A program made the translations under genes and the position numbers. The notes beneath the pieces were generated by a model. The model worked only from the letters and a program-made list of their open reading frames with translations. It did no database searches and was not told the DNA's origin. Shown piece after piece: positions 11,086 through 35,937 of a stretch of 36,200 bases of DNA. The stretch's first letter is position 1; every line of letters starts with the position of its first letter. Origin of the DNA: Candidatus Altimarinota bacterium (lineage in GTDB: Bacteria > Patescibacteriota > Gracilibacteria > BD1-5 > UBA2023); assembly GCA_043722085.1 (NCBI GenBank), contig JAYSPL010000136.1:1-36200 (forward strand). The letters are read 5' to 3'.

Positions 11086-11925
11086 ATGAAGCTCATTCCT
11101 ACCTCAGAATATCCAAAGGATTTCTTCTACCATCGTACCAGTGCTGAGATCTATCATCCTTACCTCGAATCCTGTGGGAATATTACCACTTTCGGGATAT
11201 GAAACGATCCACAATATGCCTGGAAAAAATGATTATTTGGAAATCGAGTGCATATTATAAAATATGAACGGACGGATATGGAACCAAAAATAGATTATTT
11301 GAAACAATCAGGGGTGAAACATGCGATGGTCACGTGGATCCCCTATAGTCGCACGGACATCCCTCTCGGATGGAGAAAGCTCTGGCTTACGGATCATTTT
11401 CAAGAAACCAGCGTCAATATTCTCGATGAACACTATAGATCAAAATGGAATGATCGAGCCAGACGAGCCCTCAAAAAATATGAAAAATCTGGTGCTGAAG
11501 TCCAGGCAGTTGATTCGACTACATTCGTACGGGCTTTTCGAGCTACCAAAGTAAAACACTGGTATAAGAGTGATTATATACGCAACTATGAACGGATTCG
11601 TTCATTTGCACCAGAGAAGGTCAGGCAGTGGCTTGTATACCATGAGGGTAAGGCCGTAGCGGGACTAGCTTGTATTGACTATATTGGGAATCATAGTGTG
11701 CATTTTGTAGCCTTTACAGCGAAAGAATCCTATCCAATCCAATGATGAACCGCCCTCATCGATACCTGGTTCCGTGAGTCACTGGCTCTGGGTATCAAAT
11801 ATATTACCTTTGATCAACTGCGAAATCCGCATGGCCCCAAGGATCAACGTGGATACACGGAATTCAAAGAAAACTTTGTAGAGCACCACCTTTCATTCCC
11901 AAGAGCCTATTTTAAAATGTTTTAA
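11086..11925 (+). CDS. FemAB-like / GNAT-fold acyltransferase family protein
   Basis: Track ORFs 11008..11202 and 11248..11745 plus the tail are one frame across 4 TGA (two adjacent, 11743-11748). C-terminal half KAVAGLACIDY...HFVAFT...GGTALID...GYTEFKENF resembles Fem/peptidoglycan-bridge family proteins. Confidence 0.5.
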
Positions 11926-13388
11926 GCTTGAGCCTTATTCGGTGCCATGAGTAAAAACATCCGAAGTGGAATACGAATAATTCCCGATAGAGGATCAACA
12001 TCGAGTTGATTCTCAGTAATAATAATTCCATATTTTGATGGGATTTTACTGCGTGTCTCTATGATCTGATTGTATCAATCTATGGATGATCCCACTTGCA
12101 CAACGATCGATACCTCATCGATCGTAACAATGAAATTGCCTCATCCATTGCTCCTATCGTAGAGGAGAGTACCCGTTCCCATCGTGTCAAATAGAGCGTG
12201 AAAATACATAGCAATAAAATCCTCTGTAATCTTTCATTTCGCGTGTTCATTGGAAATAAGATCTGAGAGTAGACGATAATAGAGAGTTCTAAATACGGGA
12301 GTAGAAAAGAGGTACTTAGATGACTTTCGTGAAACCACTTCTTGCGCGTAGGGTCCGTGAGGATATATTCGCCTGAGAAGACCGGCTCATACGAGTGCAT
12401 CGAGTATATCACTCATCTTAGACCTACTGAGTGCGAACTTCTCTGCCATTTTTTTGACGTTGCAATGATCCATATCAGAGAGTGCAAATAGCATAGCCGG
12501 AATAGCCGATACGGTATCAGGATGAAACTTGGACGCTGGAAGATCCCGGTACAGGATGCGGTCTATAGTCGTCTGTATCTGCTCATATGTCTCAGCTTCA
12601 CTTACAGAGGAGAGAAGGTGTGGGAGTGATCCGTATAAAAAGTACTTGTAAACATCTGACTGCAAAGAACCTTTATAGAAGGTATTCACTTCTGGTGCAA
12701 TCGTTTGGAGGGCGCTGTAGAGAGATTGACTACTCTCTGAATAGAGGATAGCATCACGGATACTCTCTCAGAGTCCTGGAATTTGGAATTTTTGCTTGGT
12801 GATCTTGATATATTCAGGAGAACTCAGTGGTAATAGTGATATATGAACTATCTGATGGCTGCTATCTACTCCCTCTTTCGGTTGCAATGCCATTGACCCG
12901 ACCATATATATAAAAATCTGACTTGAACGATGCATGAGTGCCTGAAGGGTCGTATTCCAGGTTCAATCACACTGAGTTTCATCAAGAAATAATACTAGTG
13001 GCTTATCGAGTGTCTCATACGTCAAACCGATTGATTTTTCATAGGATATGAGGACTTCCTCGAGTGTTACAGCGAGAATGCCATACGTATGGTCGAGTGA
13101 TAGAAAGAGTGTATAACAATCGGTATTGCGAATCTTGCTATAGAGCTGAAATAGGAGTGTTGTCTTTCCAGTACCACGTACTCAGGTAAGCGTAATCCAC
13201 CTTGGACTCGTATCCGATTCCATAAAATCATCAAAATGAGCTAAAAGCGGAACATATACATCTCGCTCAGGACGTTTCTGATCTCTAGAATCAAGAATAT
13301 ATGCCCTTGCTCTGAAATCAGCAAGATTTTGTTGTTCCACGAGAAGCTGCAGGAGATATGAATTATCCATAGAAAAATGAGTATACAT
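11922..13388 (-). CDS. AAA+ ATPase with DUF4143-type C-terminal domain
   Basis: Track fragments 13182..13388, 12387..12689 and parts of 12080..12412 join in one frame across 7 TGA. Walker A is LT-G-VRGTGKTTLL, Walker B VLFLDETQ. The restriction-endonuclease-like tail is typical of this family. TAA at 11922-11924. Confidence 0.8.
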
Positions 13389-13775
13389 AGGAAGTTATAT
13401 CATACTATTCATATTTATCTGATATGCAATGTAAAAAGTACATATACTCAGTAATCAATTATTATAAATAAATAATTTGTATAAATTACCATTTTTGAAT
13501 AGAAATTCTGAAAATTTCATTCTTGATACAGCCATAGTATCTCCCTTATGAGGATATTACGCTATATAAACAGATTGAAAAATATTTTATATGGCTAGTC
13601 CACTGCTCATACTTCTAGTAATCCAATATACAATTATAAAATTCAATCAAAATAGGAAGTAGAGTTTTAAATAGGCTCGGTAACAAACACAGAAAGTATG
13701 AATTTGCTTCATAGCAGTGAGATCATTCGATATTGGTATATAACTAGCATGCGTGTTACTAGAATCGCTCTTAGA

Positions 13776-14843
13776 TTACGCTACAATTACATAGTGGAGA
13801 TATTCGATTACACTATCTTTCTTGTGATTGCGTGATTCTGTTTTGTCTGCCTTGAACCGTGTATATTCTCGCTCGAATACTCCATACTTGCCACGGCGAC
13901 TCATGATCTCGCGGATATCATCGAGACTCATGAGCCCCTCATCATTGTACGAGAGGAATATATACCTCGCATCGAGATTGTCGATAAGTTCACCATATGC
14001 CTTTTTGACATTGGTTCTACTGCAATATGCTGATTTTTGTTCACGACAGTCTCGCATCCCGGTCTTGCCATGGATCTCGGGTGAGTCATATCTCGCAATC
14101 GTCTCCAGGATATGGTAGTTCCCGCTATATTGACGATGATTGTATGGTGGGTCGAGATAGACAACATCGTGCTTGCTCCCTGACACAAGGAGTCCGACAT
14201 CACTATTCGTCACGATATGATCATGATCGTTGAGATGGTATTTTGCTGGCTTGAGTTCAAGTGGTTTTTCGGCTGATTTTTTGAGTTTTTTCAGGAATGC
14301 TCCATACACCGATGCGGTATTGGCCACCTTGTCGATGGCTTCCAGAAGAGATGCGAGGAGGAAAAAATACTCATCCTCTGTCACTTTTGCTTCATTTTTC
14401 CAGATCTCTATCTGTGTACGGATCGTATCACATCGTTTGCCGTTCTCATCGGAGAAGTATTGTCGCTCGTGAGTATCTCCACTCGTCCCACCAGAACAAT
14501 AGTTCTGATAGATGAATCCACTCGTGAGCTCCAACCCACTCAGGTATGCGAGTACGATCTCCTTGGTCTCATTCACTGACGCAACGAGGAGCTCTGGGAT
14601 CTCACTCGTGAGTCCTACGAAGTAGAGATCATGATGATTACCGATGTAGTGACGGTTCAGTGCATAGCTATAGTACTGGAGATCGTTTGCCCACACCTGA
14701 TGCCCTCGCTCCTTCCAGTATCTCCCGACCTGCCCTGTCCCTGCAAAAAGATCCGAAAACATATATTTCTGATCTCCCACCACCGAAGTGATCGAAGTAT
14801 AGAGAAAATCAAGAAGGGAAAGTTTTGAGCCGATATAGTTCAT
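13776..14843 (-). CDS. DNA N6-adenine methyltransferase, D12 (Dam) class
   Basis: Intact 355-aa ORF even in the standard code. MNYIGSK, motif I DLFAGTGQVG, motif IV DPPYNHRQY, in alpha-type order. It has no in-frame TGA. Confidence 0.9.
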   Translation of the reverse strand: MNYIGSKLSLLDFLYTSITSVVGDQKYMFSDLFAGTGQVGRYWKERGHQVWANDLQYYSYALNRHYIGNHHDLYFVGLTSEIPELLVASVNETKEIVLAYLSGLELTSGFIYQNYCSGGTSGDTHERQYFSDENGKRCDTIRTQIEIWKNEAKVTEDEYFFLLASLLEAIDKVANTASVYGAFLKKLKKSAEKPLELKPAKYHLNDHDHIVTNSDVGLLVSGSKHDVVYLDPPYNHRQYSGNYHILETIARYDSPEIHGKTGMRDCREQKSAYCSRTNVKKAYGELIDNLDARYIFLSYNDEGLMSLDDIREIMSRRGKYGVFEREYTRFKADKTESRNHKKDSVIEYLHYVIVA

Positions 14844-15036
14844 GAGTTTTCATGATTAGGATGCGATCAAGCATTCCTATAGTACATGAATATTTCATGA
14901 AATCCACAGATTATAAGTATCATTTTTACCCAAATATTTTGTACTATGCAAAGTTACTATATTTTTTCCCTTCCACTCTATTCTTGTACCAATTATCGAT
15001 GAAATCATAATTCAAGAATCCACATCGATCCTTAAT

Positions 15037-15672
15037 ATTAGAAAATGCTACCTTTGATTTTTCTGTTTCAAACTTTATTTTTCGATCTTCAGGAGCTACA
15101 AAATGAAAGGAGCTACGGAAATCTTGGATTTCATTGAATTTGATAAAACCAGCTCGAAAATCAGTACTATTTTCTACTTCAAATAATTTCTCTGGAAATC
15201 ATCTTGAATTAAACCAGATAACATCAACAAAACGAATGGAATCATCAATAATATTGTCGTAAGTAAATCTTGGAATCGTTGCAAGTGTTGCGATCTTCCC
15301 AAGCTCTCTATTAATAAATATTCCATTTCGATCTGGCGTATAAGTATCAAATCATTCCATATTCCCAATCTCAATGAGCATTCCCTGAATATGTGTGTGC
15401 ATTCGCAGTGTTTTTTCTACAACTGTTTTTGCTTCTATTTCTGTAGGGAGATTTTTCAAATGAGCTGTAAGAGCGTAGACTCAGAGTCCTATTTTCGTGA
15501 ATCTTGGATCCCTCTGTACTCGCTCCTGTATAGTCATATTTGGAGTTTTTCCTACAATTTGAGATCTATCTTTATATTTCCAGATTTCCTGGTAAATAGT
15601 TTTGAGTGGAGCATAAAATCCATTATGGATCATCACTTGTTCTATAGCATCTGAGTAAGTTATATCGGACAT
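15037..15672 (-). CDS. HARE-HTH domain fused to a PD-(D/E)xK-like nuclease domain (candidate restriction endonuclease)
   Basis: Track ORF 15481..15672 continues through TGA at 15481, 15352 and 15199 to TAA 15037-15039. N-terminus ITYSDAIEQVM...GKTPNMTIQERVQRDPRFTKIGL-G-VYAL fits the HARE-HTH pattern. C-terminus has IE...VDVIWF...LFEVENST, a nuclease-like D...E-x-E core. Confidence 0.65.
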
Positions 15673-15937
15673 AATTTATACTTTTAAAAAATCTGTTATT
15701 CCCCTACCTATTAAGGTCTATTTCTTTCCATTTTTCGAGATCGAAGTCGTTGTGTACGGGCATAGAGTATTGTTTACTTATTTTGATAACTTTTTGTGAA
15801 CAGATGTACGCTTGCGTCAAGTGCAAATAATTGTTTTTTGGTATTTTATTTTGACTTTTTGATAGTATATGATACTATGCTCGTACACCCGGTGAGTGAA
15901 CCTCACCTCCAGAAACTCAATCGCAAGATTGGGTTTT

Positions 15938-16675
15938 TTATTTGTATGGACTATAGATCTTGCGACCACCGATCATGATCGTCTCACCAAGGAGCGAATT
16001 ATCAAGTATAGGGAATGTGATGGTTTTACTCATATCACAAGAAGATGCTATCACTCTTCCTTTTCACTTGAATGGCAATACACACATGAATTTTTTGTTC
16101 GGCAAATGTCATCTTGCCATATGTATGGCTGGTGCTATATCACTGTCTCCACTGAATATAATTGCCTTGTCATAGTAATTCATGACTGCTCATTCGAATA
16201 TATAAAGAGCCATATTCACATCCGTTTGTTTCTCTTCGAATGTAGAATATTTGAATCTTTGAGGACTCACAATAGCATCCAATGGATCAAGTACTTTATG
16301 TTTAATAGCAGAGAAATTTTTGGTTACCGATGTATAGTTCCCGTTGATAATCCTGATTCAGAGACTGCTCATCACTCACATGAATGTATTATGCCGTTGT
16401 ATTTTGAGTGTATCCCATTTTGGTAATGCAGTAAAAAGAAAAATATCAGTAATTTCATTATTCTCAGATAGAAATTTTTCTACAATAGATCTATAATTCA
16501 TCCATTTATATTTGTTTGGGAGATTGTTCGCTATAGAGTGATAAAAATTGAAACCATCAATATACGCAACTACTCTAGTTTTTTTGGATTCATTCATATC
16601 AGTGTATTTAGGAAAATGTATTTCTGTTATTCTATGTATTTCCTCCCATTTTGCCAAAACAAAAAATCCCCCATT
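15938..16675 (-). CDS. NYN-domain (LabA/DUF88-like, PIN-fold) protein
   Basis: RVVAYIDGFNFYH, EEKQTDVNMALYIF and AIIFSGDSDIAPAI motifs. Track ORF 16376..16657 continues through 5 TGA to TAA 15938-15940. Start uncertain: ATG 16675, TTG 16657 or ATG 16597. Confidence 0.72.
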
Positions 16676-16707
16676 TGCGTGGGAGATCTTCTTTTGAAGA
16701 TATATGA

Positions 16708-17181
16708 TTATAGAGCAGCTGGAGCCTCAGCAACAGTGACTGTACCTCCTGCCTTCTCGATAGCGGCTCGAGCTCCTGCAGATACGGCATCAGCAGTGAT
16801 CGTCATAGCGGACTGGATCTCACCTCGACCAAGAACTTTAAGAAGTTTACCTTTTTCTCGGATGATACGTCGTTCATAGAGAATCGCGTAGTCAACTACC
16901 GTAATTCCATCGAGTGCGAGTGCCTCGATCTGATCGAGATTCACAAGAACATATTGATCTGGCTTGTACGCCGTGAAACCTCGTTTCTTAGGAGTACGCC
17001 TGAAGAGTGGAGTTTGACCCCCCTCAAATGTAGGATAGCGTTTACCAGTACCAGTACGAGAGTTCTGACCATTCATACCACGACCACAAGTACCACCTAC
17101 TCAGCTCCCTCGACCTCTTGCAAGGCGGGTCTTTCGAGTTTGTGAACCAGGAGATGGGCTCAGAGTTGTGAGATTTGACAT
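16708..17181 (-). CDS. rplO: 50S ribosomal protein L15
   Basis: MSNLTTLSPSPGSQTRKTRLARGRGS-G-VGGTCGRGMNGQ matches the L15 N-terminus. ATG 17181 is reached by reading through one TGA. Confidence 0.93.
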
Positions 17182-17212: not shown

Positions 17213-17860
17213 TTATTTGGCAAGAGGAGTAACCATCTTGGTAAATGACTTGATCTGAGACGCTGGCTTGAGAGCTGCAAATGCCTTCATAGCAACGCGA
17301 GCGTTGGTAATAGGATTTGATGAACCGTGTTGTTTGGCGATAACATCTTTGAGTCCAGAAACTGAACAGATCTTACGAACCGCACCTCAGGCAATGATAC
17401 CAGTACCTGGATGCGCTGGATGAAGAAAGAGTGTAGATGACTTGAAGTTGACTGACACGTCATGAGCAATCGTACCACCCGAGATATCAAAAGTAACCAG
17501 GTTTTTCTTAGCGTCACGGATTGCTTTTTCGATAGCACCCTGGACTTCTCCAGACTTACCGATACCGAGACCAACTCGTCCTTTTCCATCACCGATAACA
17601 ATCGATGCACGGAAACGAAGTTGTCGTCAACCTGCTGTTACACGAGTAACTCGAGCAATTTCGAGCATCTCTTCTTTGAATTCCTTGGCTTCCTCACGAA
17701 TTCCACCACGACCACCATCACGACGAGGACCACCCTTGCGAGCAGCGCCACCATCACGACGATCACCTCTTGGTGCATCTTTCGAGATATCTGGAGTTGA
17801 AGTAGGAGCTGATGCCTCTACTTGACCTTCTGCGATTGGAGTAACTTGAGTATCTGACAT
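17213..17860 (-). CDS. rpsE: 30S ribosomal protein S5 (with R/G-rich N-terminal extension)
   Basis: VTAG-G-RQLRFRASIVIGDGKGRVGLGIGK and HPGTGIIA-G-GAVR, with TGA at 17627-17629 and 17387-17389 on invariant Gly. TAA at 17213-17215. Confidence 0.93.
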
Positions 17861-17884
17861 AGAAAAATATATGAGAAAGAAATA

Positions 17885-26091: not shown

Positions 26092-27261
26092 CTATTGAAA
26101 GAGTTTCTCAAAGAGAATTCGAGATTCAGTACTAACCGTACTTGTATCTATTTTTTTGATACTCGACATGATAGAATCGACCGTGGTTCCACTCTTTTGA
26201 GCGTAGATATTGATGAGATTTTTCGCATTCTGAAGAGTATTCCCTGAGGCACTCCGCAAATCCCAAATAGCTCATCGGGTAAGACTCTCTATGATCTGAT
26301 CTCCATTCGTGAATCCATGAGAGAGTGCGTTAATCGTTCAGCGAAATTGATCTCGTTCTTGTACAAAATCTGTACTCTGAAATGCCTGATACCACTTGAG
26401 GATTGCTTCCTGTGGGAAATTTGCGAGAGAGTCTCTATTTCCAGAACGCAGAGATGAGACAATGTCAATATCTCGGAATGCCGTAAACCAAGAGAGAATC
26501 CACCGTACGATATGATCCCAAACCTGTGTGATGCCTGATTTTCCAGTGAGCCTACCGTAGGCTTGGCGTAATTCTGTATTGCGAAGCGTTGTATACGTGT
26601 TATCCTTGATGGTATTGATTGAAATCCAAGCATCATCCAAGTCTCGGGTAATTTTTTTAAAGATATCGTTTGCCATCACGGATTCCCCGGGCAGGAGGGT
26701 CACGAGTTTTCCAAAAGAGTTCTCGAGCGTCACACTATGGTCAACCGAATGGATATAGTTCGCGTCCAGATTGATCTCAAATACGGTTCCACGAACTCAG
26801 GCAACAGTTCCAGACTTCGGGAGCTTAAATTCGATGCGAGAATCAGGATAGAGTGTCCGAACGATATTGGACCACGCCTTACCATTTTCGAGAACGGCGA
26901 CAAGTTCTATATGAGAATAGTCATCTGCGACACGCATTTTTTCGATCGTCAGTCTTGAGTTGGCGCCCAATCGTGTCGTGGAATGATCGGGCCAAGCAAT
27001 CACCGCGAGCGAATTTTCGCGAGTCATAATACTATCTCATTCCTGAATATCGTATATTTCTGGTGTTGTCATATCGATCGATATGTTACCTCGAGTAATC
27101 GTGGCCTTTCATTGTTCTACTGAAAGAAATGGGTTGATCGGATCATCACTATGAATCGCCTGATAATACCGATACGTTGTCATCGAAAAGGCTATGACAA
27201 AAATCGAAGCAAGAATGATAAGTATGATAGAGATGATATTTTTGTTCACTATAAAAAGCAT
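26092..27261 (-). CDS. FecR-domain membrane-anchored protein
   Basis: Track ORFs 27109..27363 (from internal ATG 27261), 26797..27027 and 26338..26733 plus a tail form one frame across 5 TGA. TM IISIILIILASIFVIAF. FecR-like core LPKSGTVA-G-VRGTVFEI. TAG at 26092-26094. Confidence 0.68.
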
Positions 27262-27305
27262 GAGAGAATAAGAGCTACCGAGATATATGGTAGTTTCAAA
27301 AAGGA

Positions 27306-27680
27306 CTAGCCTACAATCCTGCAAGGTATCATGGCATCTTCGCAGCATGCATATACAGCACACAGGCGATGGTATCCATCCGCGATAATGACGGTAGCAC
27401 TATCTGGACTACGAACAAGGAGAAGTGGCGAAAGTGGGATATTTTCTTTTATCTTTTTTTGATCTTTTTTGACGTGGGAATTGCTCACGCCAAGAAGACT
27501 CAGGTGTGATGCACGAAAAATATCTTTCGCCTTAAAAGTTACGACTTCGGCTTTTTGAAGTGCATCAACGTATCACTTTGCCCGGTCACTTGGGAACATC
27601 AAGCTCAAATACGACTCAGCCGCTGGATAGTCATGCACCTCTGGAACATCGAGCCAAGTAATTGGGCGTATTTTTTTCAT
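27306..27680 (-). CDS. small ParB/Srx-fold-like protein (DGYHR motif)
   Basis: ATG 27680 is reached through one TGA upstream of track ORF 27306..27488. PLLLVRS...VIIADGYHRLCAV resembles the ParB N-terminal domain core. Confidence 0.45.
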
Positions 27681-27914: not shown

Positions 27915-30900
27915 ATGAAGCACCCTATTTTTTTCGATCCCTCAGAAACACGAAGACCACAAACCAAGAAAGTACTATTTTTACTTATTGTAGCAATAGT
28001 ATTTTGACTCTTTGTATTTGCACTCAGTCTCTTTTTGCATCCGGTTCTTCCTCTGCCACATGTATTTCGTGATATCGCGAGTCATTCTGGTTTTCATAAA
28101 TCTATTCTCCGTACCCCCATCATTCAAAAGCCTATCTCCCATCGAGAGCAACGCATTTTTACTTATACTGGGGTAGTCTCTGCATCTGATCGCAAGATAT
28201 ATGCATTTGGAGTAGAGTGGGATGATGCAAGTTTTGCTTCACTCGAAACAAATAAGGAACATATTGATGCACTCATTCTCGAGGAGCTCTCACTCGCTGG
28301 AAGTGACATGTACATCCTCTTTCCTGAGAAATTCAAGAGAACTCTAGCGTACTTGACTGCCAATGATCCCGATCTTCCCGTTCATGCCCTGATCAATAAC
28401 TATAATCAGTCTAGTGGAGTCTGGGATACGAAGCTACTCTATGGGATATTGTCGGATGAGACGAGCCGAAAGCGACTTATTACCGGATTGGTGGACTTTG
28501 CAACAGAGCATCATCTTGAGGGGATCAATATCGATTTTGAGGAACTCGATACCGCTACATATCCCCTCTATACTGAATTTCTCAAAGAACTGAGTGGAAA
28601 GTTGCATACTATAGGCAAGACCGTGTCCGTTAATGTCCCGCTTTCCAATGATCAATTCGATCTCAAAGAAATTGCCAAATACGTAGATCTGATTTTTCTG
28701 ATGGCTTATGACGAACATTGGTCGAGTGCGAGCCCTGGACCTATTGCCTCACAAGACTGGTTTCTCGACGGAGTAGCATCAGCCCTTCATGATGTCCCTA
28801 GAGAAAAACTTGTCGTCACAATCTGAAATTATGGATACGATTGGACGATCTGAAAAAAACAATCGAGTGCATTGACCTTTCAGGAAGCGCATACGATTAT
28901 GCGAGAATCAGAAACCACCCTGATATTTGATACAGGGAGTCTCAATCCCATGTACTCATACCAAGATGATGAGAACAAGGAACATGAAGTCTGGTATCTC
29001 GATGCAGCCACTGCCTATAATCAAATCTCTGGAATTGCAACACTTGGAATCGGCAATATTTCCCTCTGGCGCCTCGGATCAGAAGATCCATCACTCTGGA
29101 AAATTATCGAAAAATCCGCAACACCAGACAGTACGACAAGCCTTCAGGAATTTACCTATGGGTATGATATAGACTATAATGGAACCGGTGAATTCTACAA
29201 GCTTCAAAGTGAGCCAATCATTTGAAAGCGGCACTTTTCACTCTCGGGGAATCTTATCACCAATGAAATCATTGATACCTATCCTCATCCATTCGTGGTA
29301 GCTCGATATGGGAATCCGAGTAGTAAAAAAATTGCGCTCACATTTGATGATGGCCCAGATACCAACTATACTCCACAGGTACTCGATATCCTGAAAAAGG
29401 AAGATATTCTCGCTACCTTCTTCGTGATTGGAGAAAATTCACAAAAATATCCAGGCATTATCAAGCGGATCTATGAAGAATGACACCTTCTCTGAAATCA
29501 TAGTTTTACGCATCCAGATATCTCAAAAATCGGTTCACTCCGCACGGATATGGAGCTCATCTCTACGGAGCGTATTATCGAAAGCATTACATGACACCAG
29601 ACAATGATATGGCGTCCACCATATGGTGAAGATATTGAACCTGAGACACCGGATCAAATGCAGCCACTCATCAATTCTAAGAAACTTGGATATATAACCG
29701 TCGGAATGAAAATTGATCCCAATGATTGGGCAAATCCAGGAGTTGACACCATTGTGAAGCGCACGATAGAGCAGATACAGTCTGGACAATGAAACATTAT
29801 CCTTCTTCATGACGCTTGAGGAGACCGAATCGAAACCATACAGGCGCTTCCTATTATTATCCGAAAACTCAAAAGTCTCGGGTATGAATTCGTTGGAGTC
29901 AATACACTACTCAATATTCCACGAGAAGAGATGATGCCCATTGTTACTGGAAATGATGCGGTTTTTAAAAAAATCAACCATGCCTCATTCAGCTTCTTTA
30001 CAGTGATACTTTGGGGTGCTTACTATATTTTTATTATCACTTTGATTTTTGGAATTGTCCGCCTTTGTATCGTGATACTTTTCGCATTTTTAGAAAAATA
30101 TCACTTTACCCCTCGACGTACTTATGATACTACTGGTAGTATCTCGGTATCTATCATTGTACCAGCATATAATGAGGCCAAGGTCATTCGCAAGACCATT
30201 GACTCATTGCTACTGAGTCGATACCAATATTTTGATATTATCGTCATCGACGATGGCTCTACCGATGGAACCAGTACGGTTGTACAATCTGCTTACGGAG
30301 ATAATCCACGTATCAAACTATTCACTCGAAAGAATTCCTGAAAGGGAGAAAGCATGAACTATGCTATTACCCATACCCAGTCTGATGTTGTTATCGTCAT
30401 CGACGCTGATACTATTTTTGCACCTGATACGATCAGTATGTTGGCTCGCCACTTTGGAGACAAGTCAGTTGGAGCCGTCTCATGAAATGTGCAGGTATGA
30501 AATCGAGAGAATATACTCACCAATTTTCAAGCACTCGAATATAATATGAGTCAAAATCTTGATAGACGGGCCTATGACGTCATGAATACGATTACCGTAG
30601 TTCCTGGTGCTGTGTGAGCCTGGAGACGAACGGCGCTCCTTGCGCTTGGATGATTCTCAGCAGACACCCTCGCTGAAGATAGCGATATGACGATGCAGCT
30701 TTTGAGAAATAGCTATACCATTCACCACGAGGAATCCGCCTATGCCTTTACCGAAGCGCCTTCAACCTGGTCAGCATTCTCCAAGCAACGATTCAGGTGG
30801 TCTTTCTGAGTACTTCAAGTCACTTGGAAACATATTGAGGCACTTTTTCAGAAAAAAACCTCCCCACTCCTCAGATTTTTTATTTTCCCAAGTTTTATCA

Positions 30901-31256
30901 TCTTTCAGATTATTGTCCCAGTGATTGCTCCCTTATTTGATATATTTACAATTGGACTTTTGATCACGAATATCGTTAGCTATACCATGTATGGCTCGAG
31001 TATCTATATGGAGACGCTTATCCATATTGCTCTATACTCATTCGTATTTCTCATATTTGATTTTTGTATTGCTTGTATTGCCATCTCGTTTGAAAAAAAT
31101 GCGAGCTGGAAGCTTCTCTACTATTTTCTTCCTCAGCGGCTTGCCTATCGATACTGTATGTACTATATCAATATCAAGGCACTGTGGAATGCACTCAAAT
31201 GAGTGGCCATCGGTTGGGATAAGCTGGAACGAAGTGGAACTGTCACTCCAAAGTAA
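27915..31256 (+). CDS. three-domain exopolysaccharide enzyme: TM + GH18-like + CE4 (NodB) deacetylase + GT2 processive synthase (PgaC/IcaA-like)
   Basis: One frame of 1113 codons with about 20 in-frame TGA joins track ORFs 28035..28826, 28872..29225, 29295..29483, 29604..29792, 29931..30341 and 30921..31202. GH18 core LEGINIDFEE. NodB motifs TFDDGP, G-HLL-G-NHSFTH, RPPYG, ILLHD. GT2 motifs IVPAYNE, VIDDGSTDGT, DADT, LAEDSD, QRFRWSFG. C-terminal TM helices. TAA at 31254-31256. Confidence 0.85.
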
Positions 31257-34752: not shown

Positions 34753-35937
34753 TTATACCAATCCTGATAAAAACCTATCGGCACTCATCATACGGATACC
34801 GTCATGATCTTCATCGATACCAGATTCAAATACGAGCTGGAATGCCGGGGCCTGGAGCTTGTCTCGAAAATACTTGAGATGCGGAGAGATAGATCATTTA
34901 CTGGCCTTAACTTCGATAATACACTCAATCTTACCATCAGATACGATACAAAAGTCTACTTCACGTTGTTCGCGATCCCTGAGAAAGTATAATTCTGCAT
35001 GTATACCATACACATCTGTCAGAAAATGAGTGTATTTCAGGAGATGATTGGCAACAACATTCTCATACTTCGATCCGATATCATCGATGCCAGTATAGTC
35101 CCAGAGATATATTTTTGGTTCTTTTCGGAGTGACTTGATATATGAGGATTGATACGGATAGATACGGTAACAGAAGTACATCTGTTCGAGCATATCTACC
35201 CAATGGGAGAGCGTTTTATGGCTGACTCGGAGATCTTCAGTAATTGAGTTAATAGAAAATAGTGATCCAACTTTTGTTGGTAACATAGTCGCAAGAATCT
35301 CGAGTGTAGAGAGATCACGAATCGTGCTCACATCACGGATATCTTCTTGTATGAGTCGTTTTTCTCGATCATTGTGCCATCTTTTGAGATCACGCATATC
35401 CCCTGAGTAGTATATTTCGGGAAATCCTCCAAATTGAATGAGATTTTCCCATATTACTCGATCTACTGTATCAGCGTAGAGCATTCCGAGTTCTCTCGTA
35501 TAGATTTTTCCGATGAGTTCTGCGATGGAGAGTGGGTGAAGTCGGAAGTAGAAATATCTCCCCAATAACGAATCTCATCCTTTTTGATATAGATCGAGTC
35601 GTGCACTCCCCGTGACGAGTATATCAAAATCATCTTTTCGGGTGTCATATATTCCTTTAATATGATTTTTCCAATCTCGATACTTGTGAATCTCATCGAA
35701 TATTACGAGTTCTGTGCCTCAGACAAAAGTGTTTGAAAGAATTGATTTTTTATCATCTCGACTATCCCAATTGAGGTATGTGGGATTTGGATAATTGGTA
35801 GCAATATTTTTTGCAAGAGTGGTTTTACCTACTTGACGGGGACCCCCGATGAATACCATTTTTTTCTTGAGATCTGTCTGGATATATGATTCTAGATAGC
35901 GTTTCATATTTTTTATTAATTCCAGAAAATTATACAT
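34753..35937 (-). CDS. AAA+ ATPase with DUF4143-type C-terminal domain (second copy)
   Basis: Track ORFs 35719..35937 and 34894..35565 join across 3 TGA. Walker A GGPRQVGKTTLA, Walker B LVIFDEIH. The tail ...VSDGKIECIIEVKASK-G-...GIRMMSADRFLSGLV is typical of the family. TAA at 34753-34755. Confidence 0.85.

Follow-up and report, generated by a model that had tools for sequence, protein, structure and literature searches.

A variable slot behind the ribosomal-protein operon of a recoded Gracilibacteria genome probably holds three independent modules rather than one four-gene defence system

Do four genes that lie side by side on one strand, directly behind the ribosomal-protein gene rplO, form a single defence system? 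The question is raised by a 36,200-nt stretch of Candidatus Altimarinota bacterium DNA (assembly GCA_043722085.1, contig JAYSPL010000136.1, positions 1 to 36,200; hereafter the window), in which rplO is followed by genes for a NYN-domain protein, a nuclease (R), a D12-class adenine methyltransferase (M1) and an AAA_14 ATPase. The initial annotation of this DNA had suggested that the four could be a composite or new defence system. We find that the block is an accessory slot of composite make-up, with modules that are either known or candidates, and that the four-gene system is refuted. We propose, with a probability of about 0.75, that three modules that evolved independently of one another sit in this variable slot, which is bounded by the end of the ribosomal-protein operon on one side and by a convergent FemAB-like gene on the other. 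The first would be a mobile type II restriction-modification (R-M) cassette of about 2 kb, made up of R, M1 and the stump of a second methyltransferase (M2). The second would be a stand-alone NYN/MARF1-like RNase gene with its own conserved structured 3' RNA tail, inserted in the leader of the cassette, and the third a resident ATPase of the FemAB-like flank with AAA_14, winged helix-turn-helix (wHTH) and DUF4143 parts.

Occupants of the slot behind rplO

Loci are cited by number. L017, a Candidatus Gracilibacteria metagenome-assembled genome (JAYSSB010000083.1), is the closest named relative of the window, and L001 is an independent assembly (Logan SRR22198256) that gives identical gene calls of 219, 242, 355 and 488 aa. 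The features of the slot, in window coordinates, are:

11086 to 11925, plus strand: FemAB/GNAT-like gene that anchors the slot on the right and is convergent to the ATPase gene; weak Pfam match to Acetyltransf_6; L017 orthologue 80% identical
11922 to 13388, minus strand: ATPase of 488 aa with an AAA_14 domain (E=1.4e-16), a MarR-like wHTH and a degenerate DUF4143 tail; full-length PADLOC match to PDC-S01 (E=1.1e-18)
13776 to 14843, minus strand: M1, D12-class N6-adenine DNA methyltransferase of 355 aa, putative cognate of R; PF02086 E=1.8e-44, PADLOC MTase_II E=5.7e-105
14944 to 15672, minus strand: R, restriction endonuclease candidate of 242 aa with an N-terminal winged helix and a C-terminal NmeDI_C domain (PD-(D/E)xK-like)
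15710 to 15763, minus strand: M2 stump (N6_N4 type), first 18 codons, MPVHNDFDLEKWKEIDL...; tblastn with M2 of L017 gives 94% identity, E=2e-7
15849 to 15950, minus strand: conserved structured non-coding tail with hairpins at 15912-15937, 15891-15907 and 15877-15888
15938 to 16597, minus strand: NYN/MARF1-like putative RNase of 219 aa; Pfam NYN PF01936 E=2e-11, PADLOC HEC-09 family
16629 to 16657, minus strand: sigma-70-like promoter TTGGCA-17-TAGAAT, the best promoter-like match in the region (10/12), shared with L017
16660 to 16690, minus strand: intrinsic terminator of the ribosomal operon, a hairpin followed by a U-run; RNA fold -17.3 kcal/mol, z=-2.76; conserved in L017
16708 to 17181, minus strand: rplO (L15), left anchor of the slot and last gene of the ribosomal-protein operon; GRGSGVGG in its code-25 translation, Ribosomal_L27A in L001, homologous in L017

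Comparison of the window with L017 takes the block apart. In L017 the slot reads rplO, M2 (a 216-aa N6_N4-type methyltransferase), R, M1, DinD (NCBIfam E=3.9e-106) and the FemAB-like gene. Nucleotide identity between the two is 79-85% in the ribosomal operon, 83% in rplO, 68% on the FemAB-like side and 91% in the R-M cassette. On the rplO side, homology extends through the terminator and the promoter to 16629 and restarts at the ribosome-binding site and first 18 codons of M2 (15763..15710); the NYN gene of the window is carried on an insert of 864 nt (15765..16628) with no counterpart in L017. On the other side, homology stops exactly at the M1 stop codon and restarts at the FemAB-like gene, and no DinD remnant was found in the 387-nt spacer next to M1. 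From this alignment, we read the ATPase of the window and DinD of L017 as alternative occupants of one end of the slot. The description of the block as accessory material behind rplO thus holds, and the slot is variable, as L017 carries the cassette with other neighbours at the same rplO position. A four-gene unit is at odds with the same comparison, because L017 has M2 and DinD where the window has NYN and the ATPase.

The co-occurrence of the families was scanned in 80 R loci, one genome per species, over 10 kb on either side of R. These loci span Gracilibacteria, Peribacteria, other members of the candidate phyla radiation, archaea, Bacteroidota, Campylobacterota, Planctomycetota and others. 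Searches of the 80 loci by tblastn with the NYN and the ATPase of the window gave nothing, and hidden Markov models (HMMs) of the families found AAA_14-type genes in only two of them (L020 and L055), 8-9 kb away. Recurrence of the neighbourhood in unrelated genomes, which the initial annotation had set as a check, was not found; homologues of NYN and the ATPase are scattered elsewhere. The combination had also been described as matching no named defence system, and here NYN and the ATPase each map to a PADLOC single-gene candidate (HEC-09 and PDC-S01, respectively). Since the NYN and ATPase families do not co-occur with the R-M pair and the neighbours in L017 differ, the four-gene system is refuted on the very grounds that had been named for it, lack of co-occurrence and independent scattering.

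The four open reading frames (ORFs) are, as annotated, co-directional on the minus strand and fill 11922..16707 directly after rplO, and they are intact only when UGA is read through. ORF calling with translation table 11 fragments the region into short ORFs and shatters most genes of the window, and UGA read-through gives long frames window-wide, for example one of 490 codons with 7 in-frame UGAs. In-frame UGA sits at universally conserved Gly positions (GRGSxVGG of rplO; TAGxR and IIAxGAVR of rpsE; xVRGTGKT of a Walker A motif), and in the nuclease family alignment the homologues called with code 4 have W exactly where the standard-code homologues have G. On the strength of these two patterns, we read the genome of the window as using genetic code 25 (UGA=Gly), the code of Gracilibacteria/Absconditabacteria. 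The code-25 reading applies to the whole window, for example at 16708-17181, 17213-17884 and 27915-31256, and one 1113-aa protein has 16 in-frame UGAs.

The spacers between the four genes had been given as 265, 193 and 387 nt. The outer two are right, but the spacer between R and M1 is 100 nt: the R gene does not end at 15037, where codon 212 is AAT and not a stop, and its true end is 14944. The spacers are AT-rich, as had been noted, with a GC content of 0.34 (265 nt) and 0.28 (387 nt) against 0.41 for the window. They hold no tRNA and no Rfam family; the sole match, below threshold, is the rplO terminator, whose hairpin alone explains this sub-threshold match to ctRNA. The remark that the block takes the place of secY agrees with the ORF maps and Pfam scans, in which no secY follows rplO, although these included no secY-specific search and did not take in every ORF; none was seen after rplO in L017 either, likewise with no secY-specific search. 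The block showed neither direct nor inverted repeats at its flanks, and no gene for an integrase or a transposase was found in it. The remainder of the window consists of housekeeping genes. A gene at 27306-27680 (minus strand) encodes a 124-aa protein with no Pfam match and with a 'DGYHR' motif suspected to be ParB/sulfiredoxin-like; it overlaps the start of the downstream FecR-domain gene (26092-27348, minus strand), which is located just upstream of the ribosomal operon region.

The restriction-modification cassette

R and M1 had been seen as a possible type II R-M pair, and the pairing is supported by an NmeDI_C domain in R and by the joint travel of the two genes. The order of the window, R and then a D12 methyltransferase, is repeated in L008/L009, L014, L015, L017, L018 and L019, and intact R and M travel together in at least seven distinct contexts (the window, L017, L015, L014, L008, L018 and L019). 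The identities to R and M1 of the window are 98 and 95% in L017, 88-90 and 83% in L015, 73 and 65% in L008, 69 and 66% in L014, 67 and 66% in L018, and 67 and 69% in L019. The cassette recurs at different genomic sites in other contigs labelled Gracilibacteria or Peribacteria, and its copies lie beside different genes: uvrA/Bro-N in L015, elsewhere PNPase..MurG, DUF559 and others.

The 265-nt 'spacer' upstream of R is read here as holding the stump of a deleted second methyltransferase. In addition to the tblastn match, the DNA of the stump region matches L017 at 94.6% over 56 nt. The same M2 stump stands upstream of R in L014, L015 and L016, and on this basis the mobile unit is taken to be [delta-M2]-R-M1, with a length of about 2 kb. 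The M2-R-M1 layout is found in L017, L006, L021 and L024, with partial signals of both methyltransferases in further loci, and an N6_N4-type methyltransferase, R and a D12-class methyltransferase in this order are likely the ancestral layout.

M1 carries the FAGTG and DPPY motifs. The initial annotation had called it a 'Dam-class' enzyme; the D12 class is confirmed, but membership of the Dam family is not, as the TIGR00571 score is 16.6 bits and the cut-off 114.85. No solved structure, Dam and DpnM included, matched M1 at E<=0.01, and PDB sequence searches with R and with M1 gave no useful match. GATC is not avoided in the window (235 observed, 236 expected). The most under-represented 4-bp palindrome of the window is ACGT (62 observed, 98 expected, z=-4.9), which is not attributable to this R-M system.

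For R, a precomputed match to PF27126 NmeDI_C is present on the gene of the window (as called in L001) and on all 120 homologues listed, while our local Pfam copy gave no match to R, and none to a DpnII-type family was seen among Pfam models. The PADLOC REase_II profile aligns residues 89-230 with profile positions 175-325 of 351 (E=3.8e-5, 20.9 bits), and plasmid genes annotated as 'type II restriction endonuclease' match the C-terminal domain at about 30% identity. The family has 589 detected members of ~240 aa, with 58-88% identity to the query among the 120 listed, and its alignment has invariant E101, D150, E165, E167 and K178. No phage homologues of R were found, and NCBIfam has no names for R, NYN or the ATPase.

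A structure model was built on a standard-code homologue that is 61% identical to R (pLDDT 89, pTM 0.88). Its N-terminal ~75 residues form a winged helix whose best PDB fold matches are forkhead domains (TM about 0.66), and the elements of its C-terminal half follow one another as in PD-(D/E)xK nucleases, alpha-beta-beta-beta-alpha-beta. The family-invariant E/D/ExE/K residues, mapped through the alignments, fall on the expected elements of the model. The nuclease core that had been predicted for R is thereby borne out, together with its NmeDI_C domain, although the fold matches are weak. The HARE-HTH assigned to its N-terminus is not: PF05066 gave no match at E<=5 in R, and 1 of 36 family members matched at E=0.041. 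The homologue model supports a generic winged-helix fold instead.

In the proposed mechanism, M1 would methylate an adenine within the target sequence of the R-M system, and R, through its winged-helix DNA-binding domain and NmeDI-like PD-(D/E)xK domain, would cut DNA that lacks the M1 mark.

Two known systems offer a comparison. DpnII systems have two adenine methyltransferases, DpnM (D12-class) and DpnA (N6_N4-class), and one endonuclease. L017, L006, L021 and L024 share with them the layout of one methyltransferase of each class and an R gene, and the cassette of the window is likewise small and horizontally mobile, with one of its two methyltransferases dispensable. Unlike DpnII-type systems, the window has an R with an NmeDI_C domain, an N-terminal winged helix and no DpnII-family Pfam match, an M1 outside the Dam family with no sign of GATC specificity, and an M2 reduced to an 18-codon stump. 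The other comparison is R.NmeDI of Neisseria meningitidis, a characterised type II enzyme of 351 aa that recognises RCCGGY and cuts on both sides (PMC2095814). R shares with it the C-terminal domain PF27126 NmeDI_C, and the PADLOC REase_II profile has 351 positions, the length of R.NmeDI. The full-length architecture of R.NmeDI is not found in the window, where R has 242 aa and a different N-terminal half. M.NmeDI is a 5-methylcytosine methyltransferase; the partner of R in the window is an N6-methyladenine (m6A) D12 methyltransferase, and the specificity is presumably different.

The NYN gene, its RNA tail and the ATPase

The NYN-domain assignment stands, with the PF01936 match given above, and the protein is also a full-length match to the PADLOC HEC-09 model (E=1.4e-33), with residues 7-208 aligned to profile positions 2-189 of 203. 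Its family is small (32 matches) and has invariant aspartates D14, D126, D151 and D153. The promoter TTGGCA-17-TAGAAT precedes the R-M cassette in L017 and NYN in the window. As judged from the alignment, NYN was inserted in the 5' leader of the cassette, between the promoter and the first cassette gene, and because of this position it is probably transcribed from the cassette promoter. Its putative role would be RNA-targeting defence or that of a toxin.

NYN adjoins R-M genes in 3/3 informative contexts (the window, L097 and L101), and the R-M types differ. L101 has a NYN homologue upstream of an EcoRI-like methylase and a GmrSD/HNH gene. In L097 (4910-8001), the homologue lies between an ORF with an MmeI/Eco57I-type methyltransferase domain and a Type_ISP_C ORF, an arrangement that looks as if NYN had been inserted into a broken type IIG/ISP restriction-modification gene. 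Distant NYN homologues, with 22-34% identity, occur on 19 viral-classified IMG/VR contigs (L112-L130).

The homology among the NYN loci (the window and L097-L101) runs about 146 nt past the stop codon. RNAalifold predicts three hairpins in this tail with 20 pairs, 8 of them compensatory, from four sequences; the equivalent elements are at L097:6645-6747, L098:6648-6749 and L101:6651-6755. In controls, 96% of the cells were paired, and the 8 compensatory pairs compare with 3.4+-1.2 in shuffles and 0-1 with slid partners. Across 0.5 Mb of sequence, a covariance model of the tail matches nowhere but beside NYN genes of this family. The tail has no Rfam match, and it was not detected on the 19 IMG/VR contigs with distant NYN homologues. 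A small ORF in the tail was considered and rejected on inspection by eye: its start is lost and its stop comes earlier in L101, the substitutions are mostly non-synonymous, and the hairpins covary. The tail could be a terminator, an attenuator or an RNA partner of the RNase. NYN and its ~100-nt RNA could even make up a self-contained two-part mobile module that prefers R-M operons of recoded Gracilibacteria and has captured the R-M promoter here, a thought that we consider unlikely to hold as a whole; such a module could be, for example, an RNase toxin or an effector of abortive infection whose RNA partner acts in cis or in trans.

HEC-09 (Hma-embedded candidate 09) is a NYN/MARF1-like single-gene defence candidate that was nominated by a 'guilt by embedding' signal, and according to the available part of its description, a representative protected against none of the phages in one published test (bioRxiv 10.1101/2024.01.29.577857). 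The NYN of the window resembles it in the full-length HMM match, in the conserved aspartates and in being embedded in or beside defence loci based on DNA modification. It differs in that the hosts here are UGA-recoded Gracilibacteria-type genomes, and that the loci in which the gene is found embedded are R-M loci (type II, IIG/ISP and EcoRI-like) and not Hma. It also has a conserved structured 3' RNA tail, which goes unmentioned in the available part of the HEC-09 description (bioRxiv 10.1101/2024.01.29.577857).

The label 'DUF4143 AAA ATPase' proved partly right. The AAA_14 domain is present, but DUF4143 falls below the Pfam cut-off (18.8 against 28.1 bits), although homologues do carry it. 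The motif of the nuclease-like tail is degenerate, N...QxG where relatives have D...(E/Q)xG. The ATPase has 21 relatives, which form a divergent subfamily, and those examined sit among housekeeping genes, with no R-M or NYN gene around them. In L106-L108, orthologues that are 54-64% identical show the same convergent arrangement with the FemAB-like gene as the ATPase of the window, for which reason we assign the ATPase to that flank and not to the cassette; these loci come from a metagenome scan, and their short contigs show the ATPase and the flank gene but not the whole slot. A second, only distantly related AAA_14 and DUF4143 ATPase of 394 aa is encoded at 34753-35937 (minus strand; PDC-S01 E=1.8e-54), and its C-terminal D...ExK motif is intact (REVDF...IEVK).

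PDC-S01 appears in the available part of the same preprint as an untested phage defence candidate from 'guilt by embedding' (bioRxiv 10.1101/2024.01.29.577857). Like PDC-S01 and the AAA_14-DUF4143 proteins, the ATPase of the window has an AAA_14 P-loop, a wHTH and a DUF4143-type tail. Unlike them, it has N...QxG in the tail in place of D...ExK, a sub-threshold DUF4143 and relatives that are not embedded in defence systems. DUF4143 is reportedly mentioned in a survey of the PD-(D/E)xK superfamily.

Rival readings and meaning

If all four genes were one undescribed defence system, in which an RNase effector worked together with a methyltransferase, an ATPase and a nuclease that senses modification, one would point to their contiguity and common direction, to the promoter that NYN and the cassette probably share, and to the PADLOC defence or candidate models that all four match. 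We consider this highly improbable: none of the 80 R loci carries the NYN family of the window or has an ATPase within 8 kb of R, L017 has the cassette with different neighbours in the same slot, the closest cassette copies adjoin uvrA or other genes, the ATPase is tied to the opposite flank in L106-L108, and NYN is a discrete 864-nt insertion. A less far-reaching alternative, possible although we doubt it, is that only the R-M pair serves in defence, that NYN is a selfish, toxin or RNA-processing gene that inserts in R-M loci and that the ATPase is a resident gene with no defence role, so that the words 'defence island' would overstate the case. It gains from the ATPase relatives among housekeeping genes and the unrelated second AAA_14/DUF4143 gene elsewhere in the window, from the degenerate nuclease-like motif of the ATPase, and from a NYN that brings along a conserved RNA tail of its own, as a self-contained module would. 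According to the available part of the preprint, moreover, HEC-09 protected against no phage tested and the PDC candidates are untested (bioRxiv 10.1101/2024.01.29.577857). It loses from the recurrent place of the NYN family beside R-M genes, itself a 'guilt by embedding' signal, and from the conservation of the NYN catalytic aspartates.

R itself could be a modification-dependent (type IV-like) or otherwise methyltransferase-independent nuclease, with M1 functionally unrelated or being lost. A census of neighbours covered the 49 R loci that have 1.5 kb or more of sequence on either side. No neighbour families of R recur other than the two methyltransferase classes (D12 and N6_N4), and 29 of the 49 loci have neither within 3 kb. 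Solitary copies of R, which seem to be under purifying selection, have housekeeping genes as tight neighbours, are intact, keep the catalytic residues and have a ratio of non-synonymous to synonymous substitution rates (dN/dS) of 0.05-0.15, with dS mostly saturated; examples of homologues without a methyltransferase, among L020-L096 and others, are L042:10001-10690, L046, L066, L002:6001-6738 and L058:10001-10995. Genomes with a solitary homologue include OZ242208.1, OZ243042.1 and that of Helicobacter saguini. Where a methyltransferase signal is present, it is in many loci a C-terminal remnant directly after an intact R. As far as the available text goes, Helbrecht et al. 2024 make the case that stand-alone fusions of a winged helix (wH) and a nuclease are m6A-dependent type IV enzymes, with adjacent methyltransferase genes sometimes frameshifted (PMC11037411). 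Like those enzymes (DpnI, FcyTI, HhiV4I), R joins a winged helix and a nuclease in one small protein, most members of its family stand alone, and some adjoin decayed methyltransferase genes. Unlike them, it has the winged helix first and then a PD-(D/E)xK domain with an NmeDI_C core, an order not among the fusion types named in the available part of that work (PMC11037411). In the clade of the window, R is strictly linked to an intact m6A methyltransferase, and no match to the DpnI fold was seen: the best fold of the winged helix is forkhead, with no DpnI-like reader among the 50 matches listed for the homologue model. Intact R and M1 move as a unit there, in the contexts listed above and with correlated divergence, a pattern not easily accounted for if M1 gave no protection against R, and a nuclease that depends on m6A would put its own genome at risk of cleavage if an active m6A methyltransferase stood beside it. 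For solitary copies, protection could come from methyltransferases in other parts of the genome, the scan having covered 10 kb on either side of R. We therefore rate a methyltransferase-independent R in the window as quite unlikely; within its clade, intact R and M1 are strictly co-transferred, which speaks for classical R-M.

Several observations weigh against three independent modules with a classical R-M pair among them. A D12 or N6_N4 methyltransferase signal lies within 3 kb in only 20 of the 49 loci of the census, which is atypical for a classical restriction endonuclease. The REase_II match of R is weak at 20.9 bits, the fold matches of its model to nucleases (BsoBI and YaeQ) are weak as well (E about 0.04), and palindrome avoidance in the window pointed to no recognition site. 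One distant NYN is found upstream in the R-M locus L014 (family HMM E=1.5e-4). NYN probably shares a promoter with the cassette, and a functional coupling may have been acquired secondarily. Finally, the comparison of the complete slot rests on L017 as the sole syntenic relative.

Taken together, the three-module reading guards against over-calling, as contiguity and a common strand made three unrelated modules resemble a new four-gene defence system. The R-M cassette is of a known kind, and it offers a clean example of a type II cassette that moves between chromosomal sites in UGA=Gly bacteria of the candidate phyla radiation. Code-11 annotation shatters such genes, and an orphan methyltransferase is probably all that automated defence finders would detect there. 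For the HEC-09 NYN family, the locus adds a second line of 'guilt by embedding', together with a conserved RNA structure to include in constructs. What novelty remains is in the RNA element that accompanies NYN and in the nuclease family: a widespread winged-helix/NmeDI_C nuclease is often kept without a neighbouring methyltransferase, an observation of relevance to the ways in which restriction nucleases survive or take on another role.

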